Source: an uncultured Planctomycetia bacterium
GTDB lineage: Bacteria > Omnitrophota > Gorgyraeia > Tantalellales > Tantalellaceae
Assembly: GCA_964527765.1 (NCBI GenBank)
Contig: CAZGQR010000001.1
Location: 182,353-246,352 of the forward strand
Length of the DNA stretch: 64,000 nt
Direction of reading: 5' to 3'
Of this stretch, positions 1,418-61,712 are shown piece after piece. Made by a program: the position numbers and the translations under genes. The notes under the pieces were generated by a model. That model had not been told where the DNA came from, searched no databases, and worked only from the letters and a program-made list of their open reading frames with translations. Numbering within the stretch: position 1 is the first letter of the stretch; each line of letters opens with the position of its first letter.

Positions 1418-4400
1418 CTAACGGGGCCAGCATATGGGATCAAATTCGCATCTGGCGCATCTGTCCCTATCGTCTCTTTCGGGCAGTTTTTCAAATTTGA
1501 GCTGCTGCATGTCCCGCCAGCATCTTGTTATCAATTTCTCCAATTCCGTAACCATTTCATCCGTAAGTTCGATATCTATATCCCGGTACTGGCCTTTGTC
1601 AAGTTCATATTTTTTTACCGTTTCCGATGCCGGTTCAAGAAACTGAAGCAAGCCGCGACTGACGGAAGCCTTCTTCCCGTCCCGCTGATTCCTGTCGAAC
1701 ACCATCTTATAGGAAATAAGCTGGCGGTAGTAATCGTCGCATTCATACTCCGAAATATCCCTGCAGTTATGTATCGCCTTGACATGCTTATCCGGTTTAC
1801 CTGTTTTATAATCAACTACCTTCACTGTCCCGTCTTTTTCGATCTCGACCTTATCGAATTTTCCCTTGAAGATAAATCCCTCGGGGAACGAGACCGCAAG
1901 TTCGCTCTCCAGAGAACAGGGCATCACCGGAGTCCGGGATTCTCTTTTATACCAGCCACTCAAGGTATCCAGCCGGGAAAGGCACATGCTCTTTACCGCA
2001 TCGCTTACGCCCTGAAATTCGAGTTCCCTCCTGAACGATTTTTTGAAGAGATCAAACCCGGGGAACTTCTTATTTTCCATATAATGAAGGTATACATCCT
2101 CAAGCGCTTTGTGGGCGCAGTTACCGAAGACTATGTGCTGCGTCTTCCTGCCGGGAAGCCTGAGAACGTAATTATACATGAACTTCCTTCTGCATGTCAG
2201 GTAACTGTTGAGCTTAGTGGGGGTGAGGGAGATCTTGCTCACCATATCCTTCAATATGCCGCGGGTATCCTTGAACGGGTCCCTGTCCGTCTTTGCCTCA
2301 AGAAACTTCCCGAGAAACTTGCCTTCATCCTTCGGTGAACCGGACCCGGGCTGAATACCCGCATGGCTCAAAAAGCGGCTTATTATCACTTTTTCTCCGG
2401 GGGTAGCCGTGTATATCAGGTTGGCCTTTGCTCTCGTGGAAGCGACATAAAAAAGACGGAGCTCATCATAAAAGCTCAGCAGTTTCAGCTTCTTTTTCTC
2501 GTCGACCCTTTCCTTGCTTTTATAGATATCCGGCGGAAGCGGCACCACATCGGGCTTGCTTCGCACCGGCCAGCTTTTCTGCTCAAGGCAGAAAGGCATG
2601 AACACGGTGTAAAACTCAAGCCCCTTCGAGCTATGGGCGGTATAAATGCGGATGCCGTCCTGGCTGAGCGTGGCCAGCTCGCCCTCTATCGGCATATCGT
2701 GCACTTCCCTCAGGTCCAGTTCGCTGGTAAAATCATCCAGTCTCAGCGAAGGCCTGGCCAGGCTCGATTCCTTTATCTTGTTCACGAACGATACCAGGGC
2801 CCTGAGATCCCTGATCCTGAGAACCTTGTTTTGTCTATAATTCTCCAGTATAAACCTGTAGAGTCCCGTATCCTCTATAAACCCCAGCAGGATATCGTGC
2901 ACCGGACGCGTTCTTGCATCCATCAGCAGCCTCTTCACGGCCCACGCCGCCTTGTGAAGAGCGTGAGGGTCTTTTAGGTCCAGTTCCCTGCTTATCTTCA
3001 ACCTGTTCGAATCTTCCCTGGTCGGCGGAGTTTCCGTTCCGCTGGCCGGAAAACGGTCCTGAAATTCCTGAAAAAGATTGAAAGACTTATATGTCCCCAG
3101 GTCCTTGTCTTTTCTGGAAAGACTCTTTTGCCTGTTCACAAAGCCTATGAACTTCAAAATATCGGCATGCGTAGCCCCGATATAATCCGAGGAAAGTATT
3201 TTATACAGGGCCAGGGATTTCTTCTCGTTGTTTTCCATGTCCACGTTTGCGAGCTCCAGCACATCCAGCATCTGCTGGACCCGTTTTTCCTGGCGTATGT
3301 CCTCGCCGCTGTCCGCGGCATACGGAATGCCGGCCTTCAGGAACGCTTCTATCACCTTCTGCCGCTGACTGCGCTTGCGGACAAGAACGGCTATGTTATT
3401 ATAAGGTTTTTCCTTTTCCTCCGGAGACAGTGAAGGGTCATGCCTTATTTTCTCGGCCTGTTTTTCTATCTCACCAATAATAAAAAAGAGCTCCTCTTCC
3501 TCGGTAAGAAATTCCAGAAACTGTATTTTCCCGTTCCTGTAATCAACACGCTTCTTAGGGTCTTTCGCGCTGACCCTTTCGTCTTCTGGAAGCTGAGATA
3601 TGATCCGGGAAGACAGTTCGATCACATCCCGGGTGGACCGGTAATTATCCTTGAGAACAATGGTCTCGAGGAAAGGGATCCTTTCTTTCAGAACGCGGAA
3701 ATTTGACAACGTCGCCCCCTGGAAACGGTATATGGACTGATCATCGTCCCCCACACAGCACAGATTCGGTGCCCCGGGGTCAAGTATTGCGAACAAAAGT
3801 TCCAACTGAGCGCCATTCGTATCCTGGTACTCGTCGACCATGATATATTTGTACTGCCTGCTAAAAGCCTCGCGCAGCTCCGTTTCCCGGCGGAACGCAT
3901 TAAGCGCTATGAGTATCATGTCATCATAATCCTTGCGTCCTCTTTCGTCAAAAAGAAGCGCGCACTCTTTGTCCTTCAGTTCCTCGTACTTTTCGTATAT
4001 TACCGAAAGCGCTTTCAGGCGCGAAACATGTTTCTCCTCAAGATTTATGCCATCCGGCCTGAGGTCTTTAAGCTGCTTCTTCAGGTCGTCCGGAGCAATA
4101 CCCTCGTTTTTGAGTTCACTTATCCGGTTCTGGATCTCCCGGATATGAATATACGGGGCTCCGAAAGGCTTGAGCTCCCCTGCGCCTTTTATATTATCCA
4201 GTATATACTCCAGCGCCCTTACCTTTTCGACCTCAGTCATATCGATCTTGTCCCTGACGTATTTTATCGCTCCCTCGGACTCAAGGACTACGGAATTGGC
4301 AAAGCTGTGAAATGTCTCGACTTCCACGTTGTACCCGTCATGCCCTATGACCGAGGCGAGCCGCTCGCGCATGGCCCTGGCGGCGGCGTTCGTGAACGTG

Positions 4401-4594
4401 ACTATGAGTATGTTCTCGGGATCGCACTTTTTCCGCAGTATGATATTGGCGGCGCGTAACGAAAGGAGTTGCGTCTTGCCTGTGCCGGGGCCGGCAAGAA
4501 TAAGAAGCGCGCCTTCGGTCGTGTCAACGGCCCTTTTCTGTTCGGCATTTAACTTATCATAGTGTTCTTGAAAAGCTTTCATTTCGGCGTGCAT
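1418..4594 (-). CDS. UvrD/PcrA-family SF1 helicase fused to a C-terminal Cas4/AddB-type PD-(D/E)XK nuclease with a 4-Cys cluster
   Basis: 1058 aa. Walker A GPGTGKT, motif II DEYQDT, TAHSSKGLEF, VASTRAK. C-terminal domain has LTCRRKF...VVDYKTGKPD...QLISYK...CARCEFDPIC (C...CxxCx5C), the pattern of iron-sulfur RecB-family nucleases. Confidence 0.8.
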   Translation of the reverse strand: MHAEMKAFQEHYDKLNAEQKRAVDTTEGALLILAGPGTGKTQLLSLRAANIILRKKCDPENILIVTFTNAAARAMRERLASVIGHDGYNVEVETFHSFANSVVLESEGAIKYVRDKIDMTEVEKVRALEYILDNIKGAGELKPFGAPYIHIREIQNRISELKNEGIAPDDLKKQLKDLRPDGINLEEKHVSRLKALSVIYEKYEELKDKECALLFDERGRKDYDDMILIALNAFRRETELREAFSRQYKYIMVDEYQDTNGAQLELLFAILDPGAPNLCCVGDDDQSIYRFQGATLSNFRVLKERIPFLETIVLKDNYRSTRDVIELSSRIISQLPEDERVSAKDPKKRVDYRNGKIQFLEFLTEEEELFFIIGEIEKQAEKIRHDPSLSPEEKEKPYNNIAVLVRKRSQRQKVIEAFLKAGIPYAADSGEDIRQEKRVQQMLDVLELANVDMENNEKKSLALYKILSSDYIGATHADILKFIGFVNRQKSLSRKDKDLGTYKSFNLFQEFQDRFPASGTETPPTREDSNRLKISRELDLKDPHALHKAAWAVKRLLMDARTRPVHDILLGFIEDTGLYRFILENYRQNKVLRIRDLRALVSFVNKIKESSLARPSLRLDDFTSELDLREVHDMPIEGELATLSQDGIRIYTAHSSKGLEFYTVFMPFCLEQKSWPVRSKPDVVPLPPDIYKSKERVDEKKKLKLLSFYDELRLFYVASTRAKANLIYTATPGEKVIISRFLSHAGIQPGSGSPKDEGKFLGKFLEAKTDRDPFKDTRGILKDMVSKISLTPTKLNSYLTCRRKFMYNYVLRLPGRKTQHIVFGNCAHKALEDVYLHYMENKKFPGFDLFKKSFRRELEFQGVSDAVKSMCLSRLDTLSGWYKRESRTPVMPCSLESELAVSFPEGFIFKGKFDKVEIEKDGTVKVVDYKTGKPDKHVKAIHNCRDISEYECDDYYRQLISYKMVFDRNQRDGKKASVSRGLLQFLEPASETVKKYELDKGQYRDIDIELTDEMVTELEKLITRCWRDMQQLKFEKLPERDDRDRCARCEFDPICWPR

Positions 4595-4657: not shown

Positions 4658-5263
4658 CTATTTTTTAGATATCTGAAAAATCGCGTTGAGAGCGAAAAGG
4701 TTCGGCATGAATCTTACGGTACCGCTTTCAGCAAGAAAAACACTTTTTTCTATAGTTATTCCCCGCTCCGCGCAAAATATCCTGAAATCCTTGATGCTCA
4801 GAAAGTGAAGGTTCGGCGTATCGTACCAGAAATAAGGCAGGGACGGCGTTATCGGCACATGCCCGCTGAAAAGTATCTGGAGCCTTGCCGTGATATAGCA
4901 AAAATTCGGGAAACCTATTATGACCTTTTTCCCGATCCTCAATGCTTCCATTATGGCTTCGGCGGGCCTGTGGACCTGCTGCATGGTCTGGTTGAAAATG
5001 ACATAATCGAACAGTTTATCGGGATATTCCTTCAGCCCGGAATCAATATCGCCGTGAGACACGCTGAGCCCCTTTTCCACGCACTTGTATATGGCCTCTT
5101 CGCTTATCTCGACACCGCTGCCTTTGACCTCCTTGCGAAGAACAAGATACTCCAGAAGATCGCCGTCGCCGCACCCCATGTCAAGCACCATGGACCCCGG
5201 CTCGATCATGTCGCCGATGACCTTATGATCGACCCTCAACTCCTCTTTTCTTTTGCTCGCCAT
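4658..5263 (-). CDS. metW: methionine biosynthesis protein MetW
   Basis: 201 aa. SAM-MTase-like motif VLDMGCGDGDLL. Typical MetW size. Immediately downstream of metX. Confidence 0.8.
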   Translation of the reverse strand: MASKRKEELRVDHKVIGDMIEPGSMVLDMGCGDGDLLEYLVLRKEVKGSGVEISEEAIYKCVEKGLSVSHGDIDSGLKEYPDKLFDYVIFNQTMQQVHRPAEAIMEALRIGKKVIIGFPNFCYITARLQILFSGHVPITPSLPYFWYDTPNLHFLSIKDFRIFCAERGITIEKSVFLAESGTVRFMPNLFALNAIFQISKK

Positions 5264-5266
5264 ACC

Positions 5267-6409
5267 TTATTTCCCCTGTTTCTTATGCGTCTTTTCCAGA
5301 AAATGCTTTATCAGCCGGCTCTCTTCGGCGTATTCAAGCAGGAAGGCGTCGTGACCGTAATCCGAACTTATTTCGCAATACGTGACATCGATGCCGTTCA
5401 TCTTGAGGGCCCTGACTATTTCCTTTGACTGAAACGGCGGATAAAGCCAATCTGAACTGAACGCGATGATCAAAAACCGCGCGCTTACGCCCCTGAACGT
5501 ATCCTGCAGTTTCTTGCCGTGCTGGAGATCAAAGTAATCCATGGCCTTGGTGATATAGAGATAAGAATTGGCATCAAACCGTTTGACAAAATTGTCCCCC
5601 CTGTAGCGAAGGTATCCTTCGACCTCGAATTCCGTACTGAATTCATACCCCAGTTCTGCTCTCTTCAATGCCCTGCCGAACTTCTTTTCCATGGACTTGT
5701 TGCTCATGTAAGTAATGTGTCCTATCATGCGCGCGACAGCCAGCCCCGCGGAAGGATGCCCTTTCTCATAATAGTTCCCTCCGTTCCAGGCCGGATCCGC
5801 CATAATAGCCTGCCGGCCGACCTCATCGAAAGCGATCTGCTGGGCAGAGTGTTTATAATTTGCGGCTATAGGGATACATGAAACGACCATCTTGGGATAT
5901 GTCACTGCCCACTGGAGGGCCTGCATGCCGCCCATGGACCCCCCGCAGACGGAAAGCAGTTTCTTGATCCCCAGAAAATCAAGCAGCTTTTTCTGCGCAT
6001 GCACCATATCCTTTATGGAGACGATCGGAAAAGCGAGCCCGTAAGGTTTTCCGGTGGATGGATTGATGGAATTGGGGCCGCTTGAACCCTTGCACCCCCC
6101 GATCACGTTCGAACAGATCACAAAATATTTATCCGTATCAAAGGCCTTGCCCGGACCGATCATATCGTTCCACCAGCCGGGTTTTTTGTCGCCGCTATGA
6201 AAACCGGCGACATGCGCATCACCGGAAAGTGCATGACATATAAGGACCGCGTTATTTTTTCGGCTGTTCAGTTCGCCGTACGTCTCGTAAGCGATCTTCA
6301 GCCCGGGAAGCTTCGCGTCGTTTTCCAGGATGAATTCCGCGCCTTCAGGCATGTTGTAATATTTTGTTTCGACAAATCCTAGATCTTTCTTGCCGCTCTT
6401 GTCTGGCAT
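5267..6409 (-). CDS. metX: homoserine O-acetyltransferase
   Basis: 380 aa alpha/beta hydrolase. Nucleophile elbow GGSMGG. Overall MetXA-like sequence, with the metW partner gene adjacent. Confidence 0.85.
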
Positions 6410-10637: not shown

Positions 10638-10685
10638 ACCCTATTTGAAGGGCTTTGCCTTTATCAAATAGGGTTTTTTATTTTC
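10638..10685 (+). terminator. rho-independent terminator / attenuator hairpin
   Basis: ACCCTATTTGA-loop-TCAAATAGGGT (11-bp perfect stem) followed by TTTTTTATTTT. It lies 8 nt upstream of the AGGAGG RBS of the next + gene. Confidence 0.6.
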
Positions 10686-10702
10686 AAAAAGGAGGCAAGA
10701 AA

Positions 10703-11794
10703 ATGAAGATCCGCCGTACAAACAATAAAATCAGGCTGCTGGCTATTCTGGTCACGATGATTTTTTTGTCATCGACACTTCTGCCTGTTTCTGCATCCCA
10801 TTCCGATGCGGGGCTTTTTTTGCCCCAGAGGGGCATGTGTTACGTTACGTGGGACAAAGAACGATTAGCCTCCAGCTACTCCGATAAATCACTCGCGAAA
10901 CTGATGTCACTCGGGGTCGAATACATATCAATAAGCGTGACACAGTATCAGGAAAGGCATAATTCAACCGATATAAAACGCACCGGCAACACCCCCAGTG
11001 ACCGGAGTCTGATCCATGCGATCAAGAAGGCCCACAAGCTGGGGATGAAAGTCATGCTTAAACCGCATATCGACCTCATTGATAAGTATGACGGTACCTA
11101 CTGGCGTGCCGATATTGGTTTCGCCTGTGAAAGAGATTGGCAAAAATGGTTCGAAAAATACCGGCAATATATACTCCATTACGCGCGTATCGCCAAAAGG
11201 CTGAATGTCGAGATCTTCTGCATCGGAACGGAACTTTCTTTCACCACGCAAAGGGAAGATGAATGGCGCAAGATCATATCAGAAATAAGAAAGGCCTACC
11301 CCGGAAAGATCGTCTACGCCGCCAACTGGGACAACTATCAAAACATAAAATTCTGGCCGGATCTTGATTACGTGGGCATCGACGCGTATTTTCCTCTCAC
11401 CTATGAATCAAATCCGTCCTTGGAGGACCTGAAAAAGGGATGGGAAAAGTGGAGATGCGATATCGAGAAGTGGCAAACCCAGGTCAATAAACCCATTATA
11501 TTCACCGAAATAGGGTATCCCAGCACATCGCACGCGCCTTATGCTCCATGGAAAGGAGGAACAGAAGGCAATGCCGATCCGGAAATACAGGCCAAATGTT
11601 ACAAAGCTTTCTTTGAGACCATGTGGGATCAACCCTGGCTTGCCGGGGTATACTGGTGGAAATGGGATACGAACATACACGCGGGGGGAACGCATAACCG
11701 GCAATTCACCCCCCAGAACAAACCGGCGCAAAGGATCATCGAGGCAAATTACAAAAGTTTCAGAAAAGACGCTACCGCGAATGCCATCCGATGA
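10703..11794 (+). CDS. secreted TIM-barrel glycoside hydrolase (GH5/GH113/Glyco_hydro_cc-like)
   Basis: Start chosen at MKIRRT (internal Met of the 10655 ORF), with RBS AAAAAGGAGG and a signal peptide. Conserved TEIGY and WWKW segments typical of (beta/alpha)8 glycosidases. Family assignment is approximate. Confidence 0.6.
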   Translation: MKIRRTNNKIRLLAILVTMIFLSSTLLPVSASHSDAGLFLPQRGMCYVTWDKERLASSYSDKSLAKLMSLGVEYISISVTQYQERHNSTDIKRTGNTPSDRSLIHAIKKAHKLGMKVMLKPHIDLIDKYDGTYWRADIGFACERDWQKWFEKYRQYILHYARIAKRLNVEIFCIGTELSFTTQREDEWRKIISEIRKAYPGKIVYAANWDNYQNIKFWPDLDYVGIDAYFPLTYESNPSLEDLKKGWEKWRCDIEKWQTQVNKPIIFTEIGYPSTSHAPYAPWKGGTEGNADPEIQAKCYKAFFETMWDQPWLAGVYWWKWDTNIHAGGTHNRQFTPQNKPAQRIIEANYKSFRKDATANAIR

Positions 11795-18983: not shown

Positions 18984-19016
18984 TAAAAAAAGGAGCCGAT
19001 CGGCTCCTTTTTTTAT
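18984..19016. terminator. intrinsic terminator (palindromic GGAGCCGATCGGCTCC flanked by A and T runs)
   Basis: AAAAAAAGGAGCCGATCGGCTCCTTTTTTTAT, 26 nt downstream of the 19042..19416 minus-strand gene. Confidence 0.55.
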
Positions 19017-27318: not shown

Positions 27319-28758
27319 TTAGAAGCTGAGCTTTACGGTACCGACTATGTCGGTAGCGGTGTCCTTATTGGGGCTCTGGAAGTGCTTGCCCGGGAAGAAC
27401 CATGCTGCCAGAAGATTGAAGGATACATCCTCTGTGTAGTCCCAGGTCAGGCTGAGGTCGACTTCGTCGCCGAGATTCTTGTTGCTAAGCGCCGGAGTCC
27501 ACTGCTCCTGAAGCCAGAAATGGCCGTAGAGAGCCTCAAAAGTAAGGCTGTCGGTCGGCTCCACCGAACCTCTTACCAGTATCTGGTGCTGGTTGGTAAA
27601 GGACGGCGAGCTGGCCTGAGCCGTGGCGTAATACACGTTCTGGAACTCTCTGATGGCCGTATCGAACTTGCCTCTGAACATCACGTCCCAGCCCTGGTAA
27701 TCACCGGTTGTGTTGGCATTCATAAGACCCTGATCGTTCTCACCGGAGTAGAAAATATACTCCACACCGAGCACGGGTCTCCAGGCGAAATCATCCTGCC
27801 AGTAACGGCATTCGATCATGGCGTCTATCGCCCAGGCGCTTCTGTCTCTGCCATTAACCTGGCTGTTTATGCCCAGGTATTGACCGCACTGATAGGCCGC
27901 TTCCACGGCGATCGTCCAGTCCTCGATCGGATCGAAGCTGCCGCGGCCGCCGAGCGTGTGGACGCTGTTGTCATCATGGCCGTTCATGCTGGTGATGCTT
28001 GTGCCATTGGCGGTTCCCGGGTTCCTGGACTGTTTCCACCACCAGTAACCTTCCGCTTCCGCGTTGTAAACATCGAACACGTAACCGATGTTCACGCCCC
28101 AGAGGTTCACATCATCATCGGACCTTCTCATATTCTCGCTTATCTTGGCGTACACGCCGTCGATGGTCCAGGGATCATAATCCAGTGTAGCTCTTACGGC
28201 GTCAAAAGAACGGATCGCTGTATATTCCTTTGGATAGATGTTGAACTGAGGATCCTGCAAGTTTGCGCCGATTATGAACCCTTTACCGAACCAGAGATCC
28301 TGACGGCCTATCCTCAGTGTAAGAGGAGAGTACAGGAACTCTTTCAGTTCGATGTAAGCCAAGTCAACATCGAGCTTCAGCTCCATGCTGTCGTTACCTA
28401 TGACTCTGTTCTCCACAATACCGTTGACGGTGATATTTCTTAATTCACCACCGGCGACGCTATTGTACCGCCAGTCACCCCACACTCTCTGGTTGACCAG
28501 TCTGATCACACCGGAAACATTGTCGGTGAGATCGGCGTCGACCTGAACTTCCGCAGTGCTCAGCAGGTAAGTCGCCCAGTCATTCGATTCACCACCGGTA
28601 TTGACTTCCGCATCGTCGCGGTTCAGATCATAATCGCCTCTCGCGAAGGCGCGCAGCGCGATATCGCCGCTTACCTTCACACTCTGCGTTTCGGCATATG
28701 CGACCGCGGAAACCGCGAACACAAGAGCCAGAACGCACAGAACTTTCAAACACTTCAT
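27319..28758 (-). CDS. outer-membrane beta-barrel protein (alginate-export/porin-like)
   Basis: 479 aa. Signal peptide. Alternating amphipathic beta-strand pattern. C-terminal F. Confidence 0.6.
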   Translation of the reverse strand: MKCLKVLCVLALVFAVSAVAYAETQSVKVSGDIALRAFARGDYDLNRDDAEVNTGGESNDWATYLLSTAEVQVDADLTDNVSGVIRLVNQRVWGDWRYNSVAGGELRNITVNGIVENRVIGNDSMELKLDVDLAYIELKEFLYSPLTLRIGRQDLWFGKGFIIGANLQDPQFNIYPKEYTAIRSFDAVRATLDYDPWTIDGVYAKISENMRRSDDDVNLWGVNIGYVFDVYNAEAEGYWWWKQSRNPGTANGTSITSMNGHDDNSVHTLGGRGSFDPIEDWTIAVEAAYQCGQYLGINSQVNGRDRSAWAIDAMIECRYWQDDFAWRPVLGVEYIFYSGENDQGLMNANTTGDYQGWDVMFRGKFDTAIREFQNVYYATAQASSPSFTNQHQILVRGSVEPTDSLTFEALYGHFWLQEQWTPALSNKNLGDEVDLSLTWDYTEDVSFNLLAAWFFPGKHFQSPNKDTATDIVGTVKLSF

Positions 28759-29088: not shown

Positions 29089-29742
29089 TTAACCTTTCCT
29101 GAGTCTTCCCACGATCTCTTCTGAATTTCGCAGGATGGCCGAGCGGACGTCTTCGGCGTCCGTCAAGGACCGAAGGACCTCGTCTATTCTCTTCGGAGTG
29201 AGGATATCTTCCGGAGAATGCGCATCCGTATTCAAGACCAGTTTGGCTCCCGTTCCGGCCGAGATATCGAAGACGTGCCTGTTCGCATCAGAATGCCCCC
29301 TGCGGGATGTTATCTCGAGATAGACCCCTTTCTCCGCGGCAAGGGACGCATCCTCTTCGGAGATGAATCCCGGATGAGCAAGTATATCCGCGCCGGCCTG
29401 AATAGCGGCGGAGTTGGTCCCGGGAAGCACGGGTTCGACCGGGGATTCGCCGTGTGCGATCACTATCCCGGCGCCTTTCTTTCGCGCGCGCTTTACAAGC
29501 TCGGCGAAGGTCTCCACCGGGACATGCGTGATCTCCACGCCGGGTATCACGAAAATGTCCCAGTACCTGTTCAGCACTTTTGATACCCTGACCAGGCTAT
29601 CAAGCACCGCGTCGATATTCGAATGATCGACATGGTCGGTCAGGGCTATCGCGCTGTGCCCGGCAACGTGCGCGCGCCTTACAAGTTCGCTGGGGATAAG
29701 CTCCCCGTCGCTGAGGATCGTATGGGTGTGCAGGTCTATCAT
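29089..29742 (-). CDS. PHP-domain metal-dependent phosphoesterase
   Basis: 217 aa. N-terminal DLHTHT and further His/Asp metal ligands of the PHP fold. Confidence 0.75.
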   Translation of the reverse strand: MIDLHTHTILSDGELIPSELVRRAHVAGHSAIALTDHVDHSNIDAVLDSLVRVSKVLNRYWDIFVIPGVEITHVPVETFAELVKRARKKGAGIVIAHGESPVEPVLPGTNSAAIQAGADILAHPGFISEEDASLAAEKGVYLEITSRRGHSDANRHVFDISAGTGAKLVLNTDAHSPEDILTPKRIDEVLRSLTDAEDVRSAILRNSEEIVGRLRKG

Positions 29743-29785
29743 CCGCGTCTCCGTGCGTTATTCAAAAACGGCATTCATGTTTTTA

Positions 29786-29948
29786 CAGATCACTGTTTGA
29801 GCTGTTTGGAACGGGGCATCGAAAGGCTGAGCGGGCACGGTTCCCGAAGGCCTGAAAGGCCTGAGGGAGAGCGAAGACTTTCGCTGAGTCCGATTCTCAC
29901 GCTGGGAGAATCGGACGTCCCCGTGAAAAACAGCTCAAACAGTGATCT
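29786..29948 (+). repeat. structured palindromic element, copy 1 (163 bp; candidate ncRNA or MITE-like element)
   Basis: 21-bp terminal inverted repeat (cagatcactgtttgagctgttt ... aaacagctcaaacagtgatctg) enclosing nested hairpins ACGGGG/CCCCGT, GGCCTGAAAGGCC, AGCGAA-GACT-TTCGCT, GTCCGATTCTC/GAGAATCGGAC. About 91% identical in the core to copy 2. Confidence 0.7.
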
Positions 29949-29967
29949 AAAAGATCCAAATCCTGAC

Positions 29968-30228
29968 TTATCTTGTCAGCTTGTTGTATAAAAGGGCGAA
30001 GATCGCGCAGCCGATACCGGCATCAAAAAAACCATAGACCGCGCCTATCACGCTTCCTATCGGGGTAAGCTCGTAGCCGACATAATACGTCTTGCCGATA
30101 TACTGGGCGACGTCTCCGGAAACGCTCAAGGTCCCCGGGAACTGCATGACCCACCATGTGAGAATGAACATGGAGGCCCCCCACAGGATCCCGCCCGCCA
30201 GAGCAAAAGCCCTTACATTCAGTTTCAT
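29968..30228 (-). CDS. small integral membrane protein
   Basis: 86 aa with two predicted TM helices. Chosen over the overlapping out-of-frame 30023..30325 ORF. Confidence 0.4.
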   Translation of the reverse strand: MKLNVRAFALAGGILWGASMFILTWWVMQFPGTLSVSGDVAQYIGKTYYVGYELTPIGSVIGAVYGFFDAGIGCAIFALLYNKLTR

Positions 30229-30337
30229 CTTGTTCTCCTTTCGCTTTTTTTCTAAAGCCGACTGCGGTCAGAGCCCGGGGCGCCGGCCGCTTCCTCATAA
30301 GGTCAAGTATAAGAATATTTCGCAAAAATTCAAGCCC

Positions 30338-30955
30338 TCAGCCTGTCCCCCGAACCCTGAGATCCTCCAGCCAGCTGTTCAATCCCTCGGAAAACCTGGA
30401 GAGTTCCAGTTTTTCCGGCAGACTGTAACTGAGCAGCTTTTCCCTGAACGCCTTTTCCCTTTCGCGGACATCCCCATGAACAGATTCTTCCAGCGGCTTT
30501 ACGGCGTTTATGAGGTCGCTTTTTCCGTCCCAACTTTCGTTCACCGGAAACCCGGCTTTCTTCAGGGGCAGATCCCACGTGGCATCCACCAGGACCCACC
30601 TGTCCTCAATGAACGCTTTGCACGCCAGATGATACGTTACCGGTATCTTGTCCGCCTGTTCTTTCAGCTCCGCAGGATAATCCGCGCCCAGCTCACTCCA
30701 CCTGAACGAATAAGTGCAATATCTGACCGCCACGCCGATCCTCTGGTACATCATTCCCAGCAGGTGATGTTTCGGCACGCAAAACCCCTTATTTCGGAAC
30801 AGCATCTCTCCGGGGCCCTTTTTAAGACTGAAAAGTTCCAGCACTATGGCAAAAGGGATGTCCCTTATTCTCTCGAATATCCTTATCCTGCTCTCTTCGG
30901 GAGGCAACCCTTCAGTCCACTCCTCAAATTTTTTTTCAACTATGTCTTTGTTCAT
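30338..30955 (-). CDS. transglutaminase-like cysteine peptidase superfamily protein
   Basis: 205 aa. The candidate Cys (GFCVPKHH) ... His (YHLACK) ... Asp (VLVDATWD) arrangement resembles the transglutaminase-like core. Moderate confidence. Confidence 0.45.
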   Translation of the reverse strand: MNKDIVEKKFEEWTEGLPPEESRIRIFERIRDIPFAIVLELFSLKKGPGEMLFRNKGFCVPKHHLLGMMYQRIGVAVRYCTYSFRWSELGADYPAELKEQADKIPVTYHLACKAFIEDRWVLVDATWDLPLKKAGFPVNESWDGKSDLINAVKPLEESVHGDVREREKAFREKLLSYSLPEKLELSRFSEGLNSWLEDLRVRGTG

Positions 30956-31003
30956 AGGCCTAAGTTATGAATTATATAGGGGCTAGATAAAGCTATGCTA
31001 AGA

Positions 31004-31157
31004 TAGATGTTTGAACTGTTTGGAGCGGGGCATCGAAAGGCCGAGCGGGCACGGTTCCCGAAGGCCCGAAGGGCCTGAGGGAGAGCGAGGACTTTCGCTG
31101 AGTACGATTTTCTCGCCGGGAAAATCGGACGTCCCCGCGAAAATAGCTCAAACATCT
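31004..31157 (+). repeat. structured palindromic element, copy 2 (154 bp)
   Basis: Same orientation as copy 1. The terminal inverted repeat and all internal hairpins are conserved, with compensatory substitutions. The 3' end overlaps the stop of the GT2 gene. Confidence 0.7.
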
Positions 31158-32236
31158 AATTTATCCTCCTTAATGGCTTTTTCGAACACCTTCAGCCAGA
31201 ACAGGAGAGGATATATTACGTGAAGAACGGACCAGATAAGGCCGTAAACGCCGTCCCTGTATCCGCGGTGCTTGATATAATGCTTATAAAACAATTTGAG
31301 GGACCTGTGCAGCAGCCGCTTTTTCAGAAATCCGCTTTTTTCAAAGCCCCGGGCATCAAGGTACGCAGCCGCCTCGGTATCGGTATAGCGGTTCCATCGC
31401 GCGATAACCTCGCCTATGGAATCAAAATTATAATGAAGCACATCCGCCTTTATATCCCCGATCTTGCCGTCAACCCTTAATGTCTCGTGTACTTTACTCC
31501 CCACATAACGGGCTCTTTTTTTTCTGAACAGTTTCACGCCCTTCCCCTGCATTGAATTGCGGAGAGGGACGCCGAACACGCAGTCACGCCGGATCAGCGT
31601 AAAGGCATCGTGGTCTCCCTTTCGCTCGATCGCCCGCCGTATCGCGTCGCGGGTCCCGGGGGTGACCTCCTCGTCGGCATCCATTTGCAGTATCCATTCT
31701 CCGGAGGCAGCTTCAATGCCTATATTGCGCTGGTTGTCGAAATTCAGGCCGGACCGATTGACGATGACCTTTGCCCCGTATTCCCCGCGCGCTATGGCCG
31801 CCGTATTATCCGTTGATTCGTCATCGACCACAACGGTCTCTGTCGCCAGGCCCCGCACGGAATCAAGGCACCGGCGTATCTTCTTTTCTTCATTTCTGGT
31901 TATGACAACAGCCGAAAGCGATAGTTCGCCCATATCTTCCTGTCCTTTCCTTATGTCCCTGAACAGTGTATACTTGGGATAATGCCGTACCGGTTCATCG
32001 CGCGGGAGATAAAAATGAAAAAGTGGTCCGTTTTTGAAAAAATGTCCATAGCGGAATTTTCCATTTTCCTGATCATAGTCGTCACCCTCATACTGGCCCT
32101 TATATACTTCATATTTTTCAGAGAGATGGACAGGGAGCTCAGGACCATAGAAATCCGGCAAACGGGCATGCCTATAAGATAAATCCCCGGGCAGAGAATC
32201 TTCTCCGGAGGAATGGACAAGAAGCATCGCCTTCAA
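31148..32236 (-). CDS. family-2 glycosyltransferase with ~100-aa N-terminal extension
   Basis: The GT2 core (LSAVVITRNEE...DDESTD...DADE) begins near the internal Met at 31933. The long ORF start overlaps the histidine-kinase stop by 4 nt, so either start is possible. Confidence 0.65.
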   Translation of the reverse strand: MKAMLLVHSSGEDSLPGDLSYRHARLPDFYGPELPVHLSEKYEVYKGQYEGDDYDQENGKFRYGHFFKNGPLFHFYLPRDEPVRHYPKYTLFRDIRKGQEDMGELSLSAVVITRNEEKKIRRCLDSVRGLATETVVVDDESTDNTAAIARGEYGAKVIVNRSGLNFDNQRNIGIEAASGEWILQMDADEEVTPGTRDAIRRAIERKGDHDAFTLIRRDCVFGVPLRNSMQGKGVKLFRKKRARYVGSKVHETLRVDGKIGDIKADVLHYNFDSIGEVIARWNRYTDTEAAAYLDARGFEKSGFLKKRLLHRSLKLFYKHYIKHRGYRDGVYGLIWSVLHVIYPLLFWLKVFEKAIKEDKLDV

Positions 32237-48502: not shown

Positions 48503-50269
48503 TTACCTCCCTTTTCTGAGTTTAAGCCCCAGCTCTCTCAGCTGCGCATCGTTAACGCTCGAAGGCGCTCCGGTGAGCGAGCAGATGCCTTTTTGCGTCT
48601 TCGGAAACGGAATAACTTCACGTATCGATGGGTCCCCGGTAAAAAGCGTGACCACCCTGTCCATGCCGAACGCTATGCCTCCATGCGGCGGAGGACCGTA
48701 ACGGAAAGCCTCAAGAAGAAAACCGAACCTTCTCCTGCATTCTTCGCTGCTCAGGCCCAGCGCGCCGAATATCTTCTCCTGTACGTCTCTTTTATGTATC
48801 CTTATGCTTCCCGACCCTATCTCGCTTCCGTTCAATACCAGGTCATAGGACCTGGATCTCACCTTCGCCAGCTCACCTTTCTCCAGAAACTCCATGTCCT
48901 CTTCTTTGAACCCGGTGAACGGGTGGTGTTCGGATACCCATCTGTTTTCATCCCTGTTGAACTTGAATAGCGGAAAATTGACCACCCAGAGAAAATCGAA
49001 CCTGTCGCTGTCTATAAGATCTTTTTCGCGGCCGATCTTCAGCCTTAATGCCCCCAGCGACTCGCACGCGACTTCCCTGGAATCGGCGACCATGAATATC
49101 ATATCCCCCGGCCTTGCGCCGGTCTCTTCGCGAAAAAGACGAAGCGTGTCCCGGGAAAAGAATTTCGTTACGGGCGAGGTAAGCTCTTTTTCCTCGACCT
49201 TGAAATATGCCAGCCCTTTGGCGCCGTACTCCCCCGCAAAAGCTGTCAGTTCATCTATTTTTTTGCGGCTTATATCTCCATAACCGGGCGCGGCCAGGGC
49301 CATCACCCTGCCGCCTGAAGAAACCGCGTTCTGAAAAACCTTGAAATCACACTTGCCTGCCGCCCGGGTAAGATCGTGCAGAAACACCTCAAATCTGGTA
49401 TCCGGCTTATCGGTGCCGTACCGGGTGAAGGCTTCTTCGTAATCCATCCTCACGAACGGTATCTTTATCTCGCGCCCCATCACTTCCGCGAAAAGCCCTT
49501 TGAACAGACGTTCACATACCTCCAGGATATCATCCTGCTCCACGAACGACATTTCCATGTCCAGCTGCGTAAACTCCGGCTGCCTGTCGGCCCTGAGATC
49601 CTCATCGCGGAAACATCGCACGATCTGAAAATATTTCTCCACTCCCGCCACCATGAGCAACTGCTTGAATATCTGGGGTGATTGGGGAAGGGCATAAAAA
49701 CTGCCCTGCTGCACCCTGGAAGGAACGAGATAATCGCGCGCGCCTTCCGGGGTGGATTTAGTGAGCACGGGTGTTTCCACGGAAACAAACTCCTCATCGT
49801 CAAGAAAATCCGTTACAAACCTGTAGATCTTATGTTTTATCAGGAGTTTTTTCTGCATGGGAGCACGCCTCAGGTCAAGATAGCGATATTTCAACCGGAC
49901 TTCCTCGGTAACATCGATCTTCTCCTTGACCTCAAAAGGCGGCGTGTCGGATTCCGAAAGGATCTCTATTTCCTTGATCTCTATCTCGATCTCTCCGGTA
50001 TTGATCTTCGGATTGACCGTTCCTTCGGGCCTTCTCGAAACTTTCCCGGTAACCTTCACGCAATATTCATTCCTGAGCTGGTGGGCTTTCCTGTGGGCAT
50101 CTTTGTTCTTTTCCGGGTCAAAGACTATCTGCGTCACGCCGTGCTTATCCCTGACGTCCATGAAAATTATCTCGCCGTGATCTCTTCTTGAAGCGATCCA
50201 CCCGCAAAGACAGACTTCCTTAGAAAGATCCTTTACGGTAAGTTCCCCGCAATTATGCGTTCGTATCAT
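48503..50269 (-). CDS. aspS: aspartate--tRNA ligase
   Basis: 588 aa. OB anticodon-binding N-terminus, class II motifs 1-3, GAD insertion. Confidence 0.9.
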   Translation of the reverse strand: MIRTHNCGELTVKDLSKEVCLCGWIASRRDHGEIIFMDVRDKHGVTQIVFDPEKNKDAHRKAHQLRNEYCVKVTGKVSRRPEGTVNPKINTGEIEIEIKEIEILSESDTPPFEVKEKIDVTEEVRLKYRYLDLRRAPMQKKLLIKHKIYRFVTDFLDDEEFVSVETPVLTKSTPEGARDYLVPSRVQQGSFYALPQSPQIFKQLLMVAGVEKYFQIVRCFRDEDLRADRQPEFTQLDMEMSFVEQDDILEVCERLFKGLFAEVMGREIKIPFVRMDYEEAFTRYGTDKPDTRFEVFLHDLTRAAGKCDFKVFQNAVSSGGRVMALAAPGYGDISRKKIDELTAFAGEYGAKGLAYFKVEEKELTSPVTKFFSRDTLRLFREETGARPGDMIFMVADSREVACESLGALRLKIGREKDLIDSDRFDFLWVVNFPLFKFNRDENRWVSEHHPFTGFKEEDMEFLEKGELAKVRSRSYDLVLNGSEIGSGSIRIHKRDVQEKIFGALGLSSEECRRRFGFLLEAFRYGPPPHGGIAFGMDRVVTLFTGDPSIREVIPFPKTQKGICSLTGAPSSVNDAQLRELGLKLRKGR

Positions 50270-51545
50270 ATTCGCCTTTCAAGCGCCTGAGAGCCCCCTC
50301 AAAAGACAGCGTTTTCTGCTCGCCGCTCTCCATGTCTTTGAGAAGCAGTTTCCCGCTTTTTATCTCTTCTTCGCCTATTATGATGACGAATTTCCTCCCG
50401 TCCTTATGGGCCTTGCGCATCTGCCCTTTGACCGACCGGCCGGAATGGTCCATCTCGCACGGCACGCCTCCGGCCCGCAATCTGTTGGTGCTACGGAATG
50501 CCTCCGGGCGTGATCCGTCATCTACGGGGATCACCAGGACCCCGGGCAGCGAATCCGAAAGGGCATTTTTCCCGTCAACGACAAGGAGCAACCTTTCAAC
50601 GCCGATAGCGTGTCCTGTCGCCCCCGCGTCCGGGCCTCCCATTTGTCTTGCAAGATTGTCATACCTGCCGCCTGCGGCTATCGCATCCTGCGCTCCCAGC
50701 GAAGGATGAACCACTTCGAATATTGTCCCCGTGTAGTAATCCAGCCCCCTCACCAGGTCTTTTTTCTCGCGAAAAGGCACTTTCATGTCCGAAAGGATCC
50801 CTTTCAGGGCGCGGTAGTCTTCCCGGCACCTTTTACACAGGTGATCCAGGATACCGGGAGCTTTTTTCACTATATCCTTGCACTCTTTTCTCTTGCAATC
50901 CAGCACGCGCAGCACGTTCCTCTTGACCCTTCTCCTGCAGTCATCGCACAAGCCGGAGCTTTTTGCGGCCAGGTAATCTGCCAGTGTTTTCTGGTAACCG
51001 GCCCGGTCTTTGTCGCATCCCAGCGAGTTAAGCAATATGGTAAAACCGTCGACCTTAAAGCTTTTCAAGAGCGCCTCAAGGTTGAGTATGATCTCGGCGT
51101 CCACGTAAGGCCCCGAAGCGCCTATTATTTCCGCCCCTATCTGGTGAAACTGCCTGAGGCGCCCTTTCTGAGGACGTTCCCCCCTGAACATGGGGCCAAA
51201 ATAATACAACTTGACCGTATCTCGCTTGTTATGCCAGCCGTGCTCTATATATGCCCGTATGATCGAAGCTGTTCCTTCGGGCCGAAGCGAGACATTCTTG
51301 CCTCCCCTGTCGGTGAAGGAATACATCTCCTTTTCGACTATATCCGTATCCTCTCCTATGCTGCGCGTAAAGACTTCCGTCTCTTCAAGAAGGGGAATAC
51401 GTATTTCATCATACCCGAACGTATGAAACACGCCCCGCGCCTTATCTTCTACCCAGCGCATCACGGCTGCTTTTTCGGGAAGAACATCGGGCATACCTCT
51501 AAGCGACTTGTACTTGAGCTCACCCACGCTAACCCCTATTCTCAC
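50253..51545 (-). CDS. hisS: histidine--tRNA ligase
   Basis: 430 aa. Class IIa motifs and HisRS-specific regions. The annotated start is GTG. The downstream MPDVLP Met is an alternative start. Confidence 0.9.
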   Translation of the reverse strand: MRIGVSVGELKYKSLRGMPDVLPEKAAVMRWVEDKARGVFHTFGYDEIRIPLLEETEVFTRSIGEDTDIVEKEMYSFTDRGGKNVSLRPEGTASIIRAYIEHGWHNKRDTVKLYYFGPMFRGERPQKGRLRQFHQIGAEIIGASGPYVDAEIILNLEALLKSFKVDGFTILLNSLGCDKDRAGYQKTLADYLAAKSSGLCDDCRRRVKRNVLRVLDCKRKECKDIVKKAPGILDHLCKRCREDYRALKGILSDMKVPFREKKDLVRGLDYYTGTIFEVVHPSLGAQDAIAAGGRYDNLARQMGGPDAGATGHAIGVERLLLVVDGKNALSDSLPGVLVIPVDDGSRPEAFRSTNRLRAGGVPCEMDHSGRSVKGQMRKAHKDGRKFVIIIGEEEIKSGKLLLKDMESGEQKTLSFEGALRRLKGEYDTNA

Positions 51546-51593
51546 AAAAGTAAATGGAACGGCCCTACTCCCGGCCTCACGCCACTACGGTAG

Positions 51594-51609
51594 ACCTGTC
51601 CCGCCTTTC
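51594..51609 (-). promoter_or_regulatory. recurrent motif instance B
   Basis: 12 nt after the HU stop. 39 nt upstream of ATTTACTTTTGTG at the hisS start. Confidence 0.3.
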
Positions 51610-51620
51610 ATGCCGTATTC

Positions 51621-58959: not shown

Positions 58960-59796
58960 CTATGTCCCTATGCGGACAGTGTCGAAATATCCTTCAAGTG
59001 AAGCGATGGCTGCCAGAACAGCAAGATAGCTTGTCCCGGGATTACCGGGGGAGGGCACGTTTTCGGCACGCGTTGTGAGGGTTCCCGCCTTGCTTTTGAC
59101 CTCTATTTCATGCGTGTTTTTCGTATATTCGCCAGAGACCACTATTTTGACCCTGGTGTTTTCGGCGCCTATGCCGGCCAATGAAAGAAGCGCGGAAACG
59201 TTGATATTTTTCGGAAAACCTTTTATCGCATCCAGCGCACTACCCTCGAAAATAACGGTCTCGTCCGTTATCGTTTCCACGTCGATGCCTTTCTCTGAAA
59301 GATACGGCGCTCCTTTAACGGACCGGGGCGGCTTGCGTGTAGTGAGGGTCACGCTCTCGATACCCGCAAGTCCCGCGGACTTTAAGGCGTCAATGCCGGC
59401 AACGGCCCCGGACGGAAGGATCAATCTTATGTTCTTTTCCCGTACTTCGGCAAGAAGGCCTTCGTTGCCTATGAATCCTCCTATGCTCATGACCATGACA
59501 TCCTTCCCCTGCCCCAGAGCCGCTTTCACGAGATCCGGCACGACCTGGGGGGAAGCGGCTTCTATTATAAGGTCCGCTTTTTTCAGTGTTTCTTCCGCGC
59601 TGTTCGCGACCACAGCGTTCTGAATTTTTTCCGCGAGCACTTCGGCCTTGCGGATATCGCTATCGCAAAGAATTATTTCCGCAATAATTTTTGTCAGGCT
59701 CTTCCCCGCATGTTCGGCAAGAGCTGATCCTATAACGCCGCACCCGACAATCCCTATAATTTTTTTGCTCATGCTTGAACCCCTGGTTTTGTACAT
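58960..59796 (-). CDS. nadX: L-aspartate dehydrogenase
   Basis: Rossmann GIVGCGVIGS. C-terminal block ENVPSPGNPGTSYLAVLAAIASL matches the NadX signature. Adjacent nadA. The first ATG (leaderless) versus MSKKIIG start is unresolved. Confidence 0.8.
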   Translation of the reverse strand: MYKTRGSSMSKKIIGIVGCGVIGSALAEHAGKSLTKIIAEIILCDSDIRKAEVLAEKIQNAVVANSAEETLKKADLIIEAASPQVVPDLVKAALGQGKDVMVMSIGGFIGNEGLLAEVREKNIRLILPSGAVAGIDALKSAGLAGIESVTLTTRKPPRSVKGAPYLSEKGIDVETITDETVIFEGSALDAIKGFPKNINVSALLSLAGIGAENTRVKIVVSGEYTKNTHEIEVKSKAGTLTTRAENVPSPGNPGTSYLAVLAAIASLEGYFDTVRIGT

Positions 59797-59850
59797 AAAA
59801 GTAAAAATATAGGGACCGGTTCAGACCATAGATTATGCTACTGCAGTGAA

Positions 59851-59865
59851 CCTGTCCCGCCTTTC
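59851..59865 (-). promoter_or_regulatory. recurrent motif instance C
   Basis: 4 nt after the nadA stop. 43 nt upstream of TTTTTACTTTTATG at the nadX first ATG. Confidence 0.3.
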
Positions 59866-59869
59866 AGCC

Positions 59870-60808
59870 CTACTGCGCCACTTCAAGCATTCTCTTCAGC
59901 GCCCTGCGCGCTTTTTCTGCCGTCTTTCCCGGCACTTCGATCCTGTAGACCATCTTCTCGAGAGACCTGGCGAGCCAGCCAAGGGTCGTAAGCTTCATGT
60001 TGGCGCAGATAAATTGATCTGTGGGGATATAAAATTTCTTGTCCGGATTATCCCGTTTTAATTTATAAACGATACCCATCTCTGTCCCCACGATGAATTC
60101 CCCTGCCGGGCTTTGCTTGACATATTTTATCATGCCGGCGGTGCTTCCTATATAGTCCGCCAGTTCAAGCACTTCTTTGCGGCATTCGGGGTGCGCTATG
60201 AATTCCGCGCGAGGATGGAGTTTCTTTGTCTTGATCACATTTTCCCTGATCAATCGCATGTGCACGGTGCAGTATCCATCCCAGAGAATAAGTTCTTTTT
60301 CCGGAACCTGCTCGGCGACATAACGACCGAGGTTCCTGTCGGGAACGAATAACACTCTGTTCTCTTTCAACGACCTTACCACCTGGACCGCGTTGGAGGA
60401 AGTACAGCATATATCGCTTTCCGCCTTGACCGCCGCCGTGGAATTGACATAACACACCACGGCCGCATCGGGATACTCTTCTTTTTTGTTCCTGAGCTTT
60501 TCAGCCGTAGCCATATCCGCGAGAGGGCATCCCGCTTCTTCCACGGGGAGAAGCACTGTCTTGTCGGGACTGAGCATATAAGCACTTTCTGCCATGAACC
60601 TCACGCCGCAGAATACAACGACTTTTTCCCCGGCTTTGGTGATCCTGCGGGCAAGAGCGTAAGAATCTCCGGTAATGTCGGCGATCTCCTGCACTTCGTC
60701 ACGCTGATAATTATGCGCGACTATAAGCGCCCCTCTCTCCTTCTTCAGGTCCAGTATCTTCCTCCTGAGGTGCTCTTTATACTTCTGGTCAAACTCGGGT
60801 TTCAGCAT
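59870..60808 (-). CDS. nadA: quinolinate synthase
   Basis: 312 aa. Three conserved Cys for the Fe-S cluster. NadA-typical HNYQ and HPEC motifs. Confidence 0.85.
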
Positions 60809-61665: not shown

Positions 61666-61712
61666 CGTATAAAAGTAAAAACGCGCGGGGGCGGTCTATT
61701 CCCGGCCTTACC

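Follow-up and report, generated by a model that had tools for sequence, protein, structure and literature searches.

A dispersed family of palindromic intergenic elements in Omnitrophota built around a covarying three-way junction

Palindromic miniature inverted-repeat transposable elements (MITEs) are known from bacteria as Correia/NEMIS (Neisseria), ERIC (enterobacteria), RUP/BOX (pneumococci) and bcr (Bacillus cereus). They measure 100-250 bp, end in terminal inverted repeats and lie in intergenic DNA, often within operons with which they are co-transcribed; they are present or absent among relatives, affect their neighbours according to orientation and, in some bcr groups, show compensatory changes. 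Insertion sequences of the IS200/IS605 type have subterminal direct hairpins and no terminal inverted repeats, with the active strand on the lagging-strand template. Integron attC sites are recognised as a folded single strand and not by sequence; they are imperfectly palindromic, span 60-140 nt and contain unpaired bases that are conserved. REPINs and the related REP/BIME repeats are short, non-coding, extragenic and dispersed, non-autonomous, and form long hairpins in single-stranded DNA (ssDNA) or mRNA; their sequence groups co-reside, and compensatory changes are frequent (Bertels & Rainey 2011, PMC3116915). Here we describe a family of elements, 150-250 bp long, of which two copies lie in a 64-kb stretch of an Omnitrophota genome (64,000 nt of contig CAZGQR010000001.1, called the window throughout). 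Long outer arms enclose a core of ~105 nt that folds into a three-way junction. The fold under selection is that of the + strand, and elements are gained and lost between related genomes, landing in tight gaps between unrelated housekeeping genes. We see about an even chance that these are dispersed, non-autonomous REPIN/MITE-like mobile elements in which the single-strand fold is the selected feature. The family seems to be restricted to some Omnitrophota and appears to be undescribed so far: neither Rfam nor the literature searched yielded a description of Omnitrophota repeats or non-coding RNAs (ncRNAs).

The elements share with REPINs all the traits listed above. A REPIN, however, is a symmetric doublet of a 20-25-nt REP sequence with an unimportant spacer, described from Proteobacteria, whereas the Omnitrophota element is two to three times longer, carries invariant unpaired motifs and is symmetric in its outer arms but not in its conserved part, the asymmetric junction. 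No RAYT (a Y1 HUH protein) was found among the Pfam-scanned neighbours of the copies. Size, terminal inverted repeats, dispersal, intergenic sites and presence or absence (here at four filled/empty orthologous pairs) are as in the palindromic MITEs; in contrast to these, there is no consistent target-site duplication, and no parent insertion sequence with the same ends was seen in the window or in the locus fragments of its relatives. Moreover, types that differ in arms and helices have the conserved core in common, a pattern that inverted repeats bound by a transposase do not explain. The HEARO/omega RNAs of IS200/IS605 elements in Rfam are likewise structured and multi-copy, with ~100-300 nt and covarying helices, but the elements described here have no adjacent TnpB, IscB or other open reading frame (ORF) and are closed by a long terminal stem.

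Two window copies and their relatives

The two copies lie 1.2 kb apart in the same orientation and are 90% identical across 143 nt without a gap, as placed on the + strand by a model-made reading of the same DNA (the first-pass annotation).

29787-29948, + strand: copy 1, whole element (162 nt)
29787-29807, + strand: copy 1, 5' arm of the outer stem, AGATCACTGTTTGAGCTGTTT, paired with 29928-29948
29928-29948, + strand: copy 1, 3' arm of the outer stem, AAACAGCTCAAACAGTGATCT, from inverted-repeat search and arm alignment
31004-31158, + strand: copy 2, whole element (155 nt), with the model core at 31016-31145
31004-31021 with 31141-31158, + strand: copy 2, arms (18 bp, two mismatches)

Element ends were set by arm-to-arm alignment, after minimum-energy folding with wide flanks had yielded spurious outer pairs. 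The terminal inverted repeats that the first-pass annotation had described were recovered in both copies, that of copy 1 as a perfect repeat of 21 Watson-Crick pairs with zero mismatches, although the 3' end of this copy reads ...cagtgatcta and not ...ctg. Stretched to 30 nt, the repeat of copy 1 retains 90% complementarity, and the element may be longer (~29781-29952) by virtue of a weaker palindrome, TTTTA.../...TAAAA. Covariance models R1 and R2 score copy 1 at 141 and 138 bits over 29802-29932 and copy 2 at 128 and 124 bits; against the 138-141 bits of the + strand, the reverse strand reaches merely 21-24 bits. Both copies fold far better than dinucleotide shuffles, none of which equalled the native sequence: the z-scores are -10.0 (copy 1) and -5.9 (copy 2) with RNA parameters and -10.7 for copy 1 with DNA parameters. 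Folding of the - strand is also strong (-8.9 and -5.9).

For a 19-mer from the core, the window contains two occurrences where 0 are expected. Scanning one genome per GTDB species for this 19-mer gave three homologous copies, all of them in Candidatus Makaraimicrobium thalassicum, an Omnitrophota metagenome-assembled genome from the Guaymas Basin. Given both observations, chance similarity is excluded. With a 21-base gapped pattern, the JGI metagenomes yielded 8 contigs from the same Guaymas sample, 3 from a second sample and 1 further contig, besides five matches judged to be chance; two viral-contig matches of a 17-mer core, which had no further similarity, were also rejected as chance. At least 11 copies spread over 8 contigs come from a single metagenome (Ga0164318, Guaymas Basin sediment). 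The pair had been put forward as a candidate family, and in all, scans of public genomes and metagenomes together with a covariance model have now added ~17 copies, every one on an Omnitrophota contig. Several of these contigs belong to close relatives of the window organism, whose PHP protein has closest homologues that are all annotated as Candidatus Omnitrophota. Because the aspS operon is ~75-80% identical in protein sequence between the window and one Guaymas contig, the window organism and the Guaymas organisms are fairly close relatives; this distance was gauged by aspS and its neighbours, after a pair of HhH-GPD proteins had been dropped as non-orthologous (23% identity).

A covariance model built from 12 copies and run with filters off finds just the two copies in the window. 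Elsewhere it recovered divergent members that sequence search had missed, namely types C and D on contig L037 and type C in L059. At least four sequence types (A, B, C and D) thus share one architecture, and on L037 all four are found within 11 kb, with one copy each. Two of these, in the murC/murB gap, are inverted relative to each other and 117 nt apart (type B at 5666-5796 on the - strand, type D at 5913-6032 on the + strand); the arrangement is reminiscent of the alternating-orientation clusters that REP/BIME repeats occasionally form. A third R2 match in the window (28620-28736, - strand, 49 bits) was judged a false positive. It falls within the part of an alginate-export-like outer-membrane gene that codes for the signal peptide and N terminus, downstream of a good ribosome-binding site; it contains many non-canonical pairs, and its minimum-energy fold is unlike the junction. 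The same segment imitates the CCGAA-hairpin-GAAGG motif and a CGCGAG loop, and its orthologous site in the related strain L055 scores 61 bits with R2, which is high for chance.

With Rfam 15 at the gathering threshold, no match in the entire window overlaps either copy, and at E <= 10 no family matches copies 1 and 2 on either strand of 29700-31250; the copies of type C, type D and L045 are likewise without a match at E <= 1. The first-pass view that the elements stand outside the named RNA families is thus upheld. BLAST of copy 1 against plasmid and phage collections gave no match. A profile of the most often open frame matched nothing at E <= 1 among 5.8 billion proteins, which bears out the earlier dismissal of the ORF-track entries inside the elements as artefacts.

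A conserved junction folded on the + strand

All types are built alike: a long outer stem leads into a three-way junction formed by P1b, P2-P3 and P4. In copy 1, the parts of the junction are as follows.

29811-29817, + strand: helix P1b, 5' strand ACGGGGC, paired with 29917-29924 (GTCCCCGT), T29918 bulged
29820-29828, + strand: long-range helix P2, CGAAAGGCT, paired with 29875-29883 (AGACTTTCG)
29829-29840, + strand: conserved unpaired junction GAGCGGGCACGG, with the family minimum GCNNGG directly 5' of P3
29841-29869, + strand: P3/P3b hairpin, TTCCC-GAA-GGCCT-GAA-AGGCC-TGA-GGGAG
29888-29916, + strand: P4 hairpin, 11-bp stem GTCCGATTCTC/GAGAATCGGAC, with the 7-nt loop ACGCTGG at 29899-29905

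The outer arms vary from ~20 bp in the window copies up to ~75-85 bp in L050 and L045, and a GCTGTTT box recurs in the arms of most types, being common to types A-D and the window copies. Types B, C and D have a symmetric internal loop, GUA/GUA, between the outer stem and P1b, the helix that closes the three-way junction. Inside P2 lie an asymmetric bulge of conserved sequence (GCNNGG) and, at the apex, hairpin P3. The strands of P2 change with the type: type A has GGATGTCC/GGACATCC, type B AGGCTGCCC/GGGCAGCCT and the L045 type AAATTTCCC/GGGAAATTT. Most copies have a 3x3 G/A internal loop in P3/P3b, which is fully Watson-Crick in the L045/L035 type instead. The P4 stem is hypervariable yet paired in every copy, its apical part alternating between TTTTC/GAAAA, TTTCC/GGAAA, TTCCC/GGGAA and TTCTC/GAGAA among types A, B and the window copies, while its loop CGCUGG is constant across all four types. 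Together with this loop, GCNNGG 5' of P3 and a GAG linker before P4 form the unpaired invariants of all types; types C and D retain GCUUGG at the junction. The invariance of GGCC...GGCCTGAGGGAGAGCGA is partly due to the pattern used in the copy search. By contrast, GAGCGGGC, the P4 loop and the linker are conserved independently of that pattern, and the junction GAGCGGGCACGG is near-invariant in alignments A3 and A5 though it lies outside the pattern used for the metagenomes.

In a MAFFT alignment that was not fitted to structure, the 36 proposed pairs are 93% paired, as against 57% or less after shifting the partners by one to three columns; 17 of the 36 vary on both sides, and none of 500 shuffles of this sequence-only alignment reached the observed values. 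A model-fitted alignment that includes types C and D, and which is biased towards structure by construction, has 41 pairs, 94% paired and 35 of them varying on both sides. Both-sided change is seen in 8 of the 9 pairs of P2 with the sequence-based alignment and in 9 of 9 with the model alignment, and every subfamily covaries in this helix; for P4, the corresponding figures are 7 and 9 of 11 pairs. Between the window copies themselves, the three compensatory pairs noted in the first-pass annotation hold (A-T to G-C in ACGGGG/CCCCGT, an extra pair in GGCC/GGCC and C-G to T-A in the GATTCTC hairpin). They are joined by a fourth, T-A to C-G, which links 29828 with 29875 in the long-range helix. 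The outermost stem also differs while keeping its structure, with CACT/AGTG in copy 1 and either no counterpart or AGA/TCT in copy 2. Other details of the earlier fold have to be revised. The family alignment does not support a local hairpin AGCGAR/TTCGCT, in place of which the long-range P2 forms: CGAAAG (29820-29825), previously read as a GNRA-like loop (cGAAAg), pairs with CTTTCG (29878-29883), and the A-to-G change taken for a G-U wobble is in fact half of a compensated P2 pair.

The folded strand can be told from wobble pairs. Across the aligned core, G-T/T-G combinations occupy 23 cells and A-C/C-A combinations 5. When one column that is always U-G is set aside, the counts are 11 and 5, four of the five A-C cells then belonging to a degraded copy, L039. 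In the outer arms, the counts are 18 and 7. U-G pairs within the P3/P3b hairpin also point to the + strand, as does the one position at which the window and strain L055 (PHP protein 96% identical) differ in copy 1, where the change makes a G-T pair on the + strand. Since G-U exceeds A-C mismatches and the unpaired segments of the + strand are rich in purines, we conclude that the + strand is the one that folds. The wobble and loop data do not discriminate between RNA and ssDNA as the folded molecule. In minimum-energy folds of copy 1, DNA parameters recover the family P2 whereas RNA parameters do not. Triloops of the form C(NAA)G and tandem G-A mismatches, both known for their stability in DNA hairpins, occur in the elements and are at least compatible with such hairpins.

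Genomic setting, gain and loss

Every gene near the two copies is on the - strand.

29089-29742, - strand: PHP-domain hydrolase
29968-30228, - strand: 86-aa membrane protein
30338-30955, - strand: 205-aa transglutaminase-like protein
31148-32236, - strand: family-2 glycosyltransferase, upstream of copy 2

The TGA stop of the glycosyltransferase ORF (31148-31150, - strand) falls within the 3' arm of copy 2. Elsewhere, the family sits next to unrelated housekeeping genes, among them murD, murC|murB, aspS, fur, mutL|nth, tatC, PFOR and etfA, as well as genes for a monogalactosyldiacylglycerol (MGDG) synthase and glycogen phosphorylase. As these neighbours are functionally unrelated, a pathway-specific riboswitch or leader is excluded. 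Relative to Pfam-supported flanking genes, the + strand of the element is antisense at 13 of the 15 interpretable loci, in agreement with the first-pass proposal of a folded + strand antisense to its neighbours. The two sense-oriented exceptions are L035 and the type D copy of L037; L045 sits between divergent genes. Elements placed between co-directional genes must be transcribed within their operons.

Strand bias in the window is extreme, with almost all non-shadow ORFs of >= 200 aa on the - strand; across the whole window, the + strand has a GC skew of -0.07 to -0.14 and an AT skew that is likewise negative. Orientation towards transcription and orientation towards replication are inseparable because nearly all window genes lie on one strand. 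If genes are co-oriented with replication, the folded strand is presumably the leading-strand template. A consensus scan for a + strand transcript of the elements' own found no sigma-70-like promoter and no intrinsic terminator at either window copy (Omnitrophota promoters being uncharacterised), and no upstream motif is conserved across the copies.

Comparison of orthologous loci documents gain, loss and decay. Downstream of aspS, the gap is 2 nt in the window and holds an insert of ~270 nt with a type A element in L038; insertion into a 2-nt gap between coupled genes implies an active insertion process. Upstream of an HD-domain gene, L048 has a type B element and the window an element-free gap of 96 nt. 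Downstream of an inositol-phosphatase gene, a type C element is present in L059 and absent from L057, L060 and the window. Finally, the gap between the 86-aa and PHP genes holds copy 1 in the window and in strain L055, while L056, an 82%-identical relative, has there a 75-nt gap with merely a short unrelated palindrome. Of the element at its ortholog of copy 2, L056 has retained the arms and the 3' third; the core is gone, and the remnant folds no better than chance (z = -1.2). Several sequence types co-reside, and individual copies can decay. Both genes between the window copies are retained in L056 (as 209-aa and 80-aa products) without an intact flanking element, and we therefore conclude that the window copies do not delimit a cassette.

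Two palindromes lie at such sites. In the window, a palindrome with a 13-bp stem (CCCGTTAGAAATG...CATTTCTAACGGG, ~1335-1400) occupies the gap between genes 353-1321 and 1418-4594, exactly the site of the type B element of L048; its arm AGAAATGT resembles type B outer arms (AAGAAATGTGAC), and it could be a remnant or an excision footprint. In L056, a short perfect palindrome, GCCGGGGTTTAAAC(C/T)CCGGC, is found twice in consecutive intergenic gaps (4470-4500 and 4855-4890), once at the site of window copy 1, which suggests a second, REP-like family of short repeats in these genomes.

Symmetric flanks were seen at the mutL|nth insert of L043, which is bordered by CAGGAGGAA and CAAGGAGGAA. They are a possible 9-10-bp target duplication of the Shine-Dalgarno region, and convergence could explain them as well. 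L038 shows a degenerate version of this pattern, and none of the other 15 among the 17 copies examined, including both window copies, has a target-site duplication. Sequence conservation between genomes is high in two cases. Between the window and L055, copy 1 shows a single difference in 162 positions (99.4% identity), against 84-97% identity for the flanking genes; the signal of constraint is weak, however, because the tract of low divergence also spans the adjacent intergenic DNA and the 86-aa gene. The type C elements of L037 and L059 are 86% identical over ~190 nt, including arms of 32 bp. Their differences cluster in the stem of P4: four to five pairs have been exchanged there with complete compensation, while the loop is constant.

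Other features of the window are recorded here in passing. A c-di-GMP-I riboswitch aptamer (Rfam RF01051, 10505-10594, + strand, 60 bits, above gathering) precedes ORF 10655-11794, which like few other genes of the window is on the + strand. Direct repeats of 46 nt at 51565-51610, 59821-59866 and 61696-61741 end in CCTGTCCCGCCTTTCA, are 65-85% identical and have no Rfam match; each lies 20-30 nt upstream of the start of a - strand gene (50253-51545, 58960-59796 and 60802-61665), and they may be a shared leader or promoter motif. A perfect 32-nt palindrome at 18984-19015 (TAAAAAAAGGAGCCGA/TCGGCTCCTTTTTTTA), with A/T runs on either side, looks like a bidirectional intrinsic terminator. Around 27319-28758, genes for the PHP hydrolase, the alginate-export-like porin, a MamF/MmsF-family protein, a DUF3047 protein, a HAMP protein and a hexapeptide transferase form a neighbourhood that is common to several Omnitrophota relatives (L051, L057-L060). 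Some Omnitrophota are magnetotactic, which makes the MamF/MmsF homologue noteworthy.

Mobile hairpin, RNA gene or operon element

Should the family be mobile, as we consider about evenly probable, its elements would spread in trans through a single-stranded intermediate, for which we lean towards ssDNA over RNA. An enzyme encoded elsewhere would recognise the folded junction and not the primary sequence of the stems, by a logic that may be analogous to that of REP/REPIN with RAYT or of attC with IntI. Copies within operons would persist chiefly in the orientation that is harmless to the expression of surrounding genes.

Several observations weigh against mobility. In the 64-kb window and the locus fragments of up to ~20 kb each, no transposase, RAYT, recombinase or reverse transcriptase came to light as a partner, and no solo arms flank any gene. 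The single clean target-site duplication among 17 copies resembles a Shine-Dalgarno sequence, with convergence as a possible cause. A classical DDE-type MITE has no need of a conserved, asymmetric and covarying core. The folded strand, as the presumed leading-strand template, is the opposite of what the ssDNA model of IS200/IS605 predicts. Moreover, the near-identity of copy 1 between strains, set against its more divergent flanking genes, and the similarity of type C across two different genomes are more suggestive of purifying selection for a useful molecule than of junk.

The same conservation speaks for a family of structured ncRNA genes whose several isotypes would be read from the + strand, opposite in sense to the operons around them, an account that we hold to be a serious rival but on the doubtful side. 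The outer stem would then be a processing stalk, for example for RNase III, and the three-way junction the mature RNA that binds a protein or ligand. Strong covariation and the G-U excess of the + strand fit this account, as do the purine-rich unpaired motifs (GCNNGG, GAG and CGCUGG), which are common to types with wholly different helices. However, covariation carries less weight here than it might seem. Compensatory changes across the hairpin are common in mobile, RAYT-dependent REPINs (PMC3116915), and the step from covariation to ncRNA is therefore unsupported. In the elements described here, such changes could stem from a DNA-level correction of one arm by the other, templated by the hairpin, and the hypervariable but paired P4 could mirror selection on the master copies of a mobile family; either way, 'compensatory' changes are possible without RNA function. 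An RNA gene is also at odds with the gain, loss and decay of copies among close relatives, with the active insertion implied at the 2-nt gap, with the lack of promoter, terminator and upstream motif in the scans described above, and with stems of up to ~75-85 bp, which are unusual among cellular RNAs. The constraint signal at copy 1 is weakened, besides, by the extent of the low-divergence tract. The first-pass annotation had offered ncRNA and MITE as alternatives with a preference for the former. Its 'MITE-like' alternative fits better, in view of the multiple copies, the several subfamilies per genome, the unrelated neighbours and the presence or absence at orthologous sites.

REP, ERIC and Correia elements have been reported to act in cis within mRNA. 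A comparable role, in which the - strand RNA hairpin of sense polycistronic mRNAs would serve as an RNase III site, an exonuclease barrier or a partial terminator and so uncouple neighbouring cistrons, seems unlikely to us here. The elements do lie between co-directional genes and are transcribed with the operons, their orientation towards genes is biased 13 to 2, and the - strand folds well, as noted above. On that strand, though, G-U pairs would be rare (5 and 7 cells against 23 and 18), the loops would be rich in pyrimidines, and the stem is not followed by a U-tract; and a plain hairpin would suffice for such a role, which leaves the conserved asymmetric junction unexplained.

Membership among integron attC sites, with the window copies as a two-site CALIN (cluster of attC sites lacking an integron integrase) around a cassette of the 205-aa and 86-aa genes, is very improbable. 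Two 90%-identical direct copies do bracket a 1.05-kb two-gene unit, in keeping with the ~90% likeness of attC copies within a genome; conservation lies in structure more than in sequence; and, like the bottom strand that recombines in attC, the strand that folds runs antisense to the genes. Nevertheless, the R-box motif that defines attC fails, and membership was rejected: R''/R' are absent and the polarity is reversed, the arms reading 5'-GTTTGAG...CTCAAAC-3' on both strands and not 5'-RYYYAAC...GTTRRRY-3', and the L045 and L040 types have no such box at all. Most copies are single insertions between housekeeping genes, without arrays or an adjacent integrase, and in L056, which retains both genes, the element is missing on one side and decayed on the other. 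The ends of IS200/IS605 elements, another suggestion of the first-pass annotation, and palindrome-associated transposable elements (PATE) are ruled out by the long terminal inverted repeats and by the folding of the wrong strand. Least probable of all is an inverton, in which a site-specific recombinase would flip the ~110 bp between inverted repeats: repeats of 18-30 bp bracket ~100 bp, several homologous copies occur per genome and one window copy adjoins a glycosyltransferase gene, but four independent assemblies of the locus show identical orientation and no inversion, 13 of 15 loci are oriented alike, no promoter motif was found and the covarying internal helices would be unexplained.

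As a tentative proposal, the junction might be the substrate of a new structure-specific machinery in Omnitrophota, which would act on the GCNNGG bulge, the GAG linker and the CGCUGG loop, joined in types B-D by the GUA/GUA loop. The element would then belong either to a new class of mobile elements recognised by shape as a single strand of DNA or RNA, with a fold much more elaborate than in attC or REP, or to a new family of cellular RNAs of several isotypes cut from long processing stems.

The family shows that covariation alone cannot tell an RNA gene from a mobile hairpin, and, with an elaborate three-way junction in place of a plain palindrome as the object of selection, it provides a test case. 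A covariance model of the family can flag its elements so that gene callers and assemblers avoid misreading them. For the Omnitrophota, an uncultivated and poorly understood phylum, a partner enzyme, if one exists, would be specific for nucleic-acid structure and have a new substrate, and kindred activities (IntI, TnpA/RAYT and the IS110 bridge systems) have proved useful time and again; if the element is an RNA, it would represent a new multi-copy RNA class.

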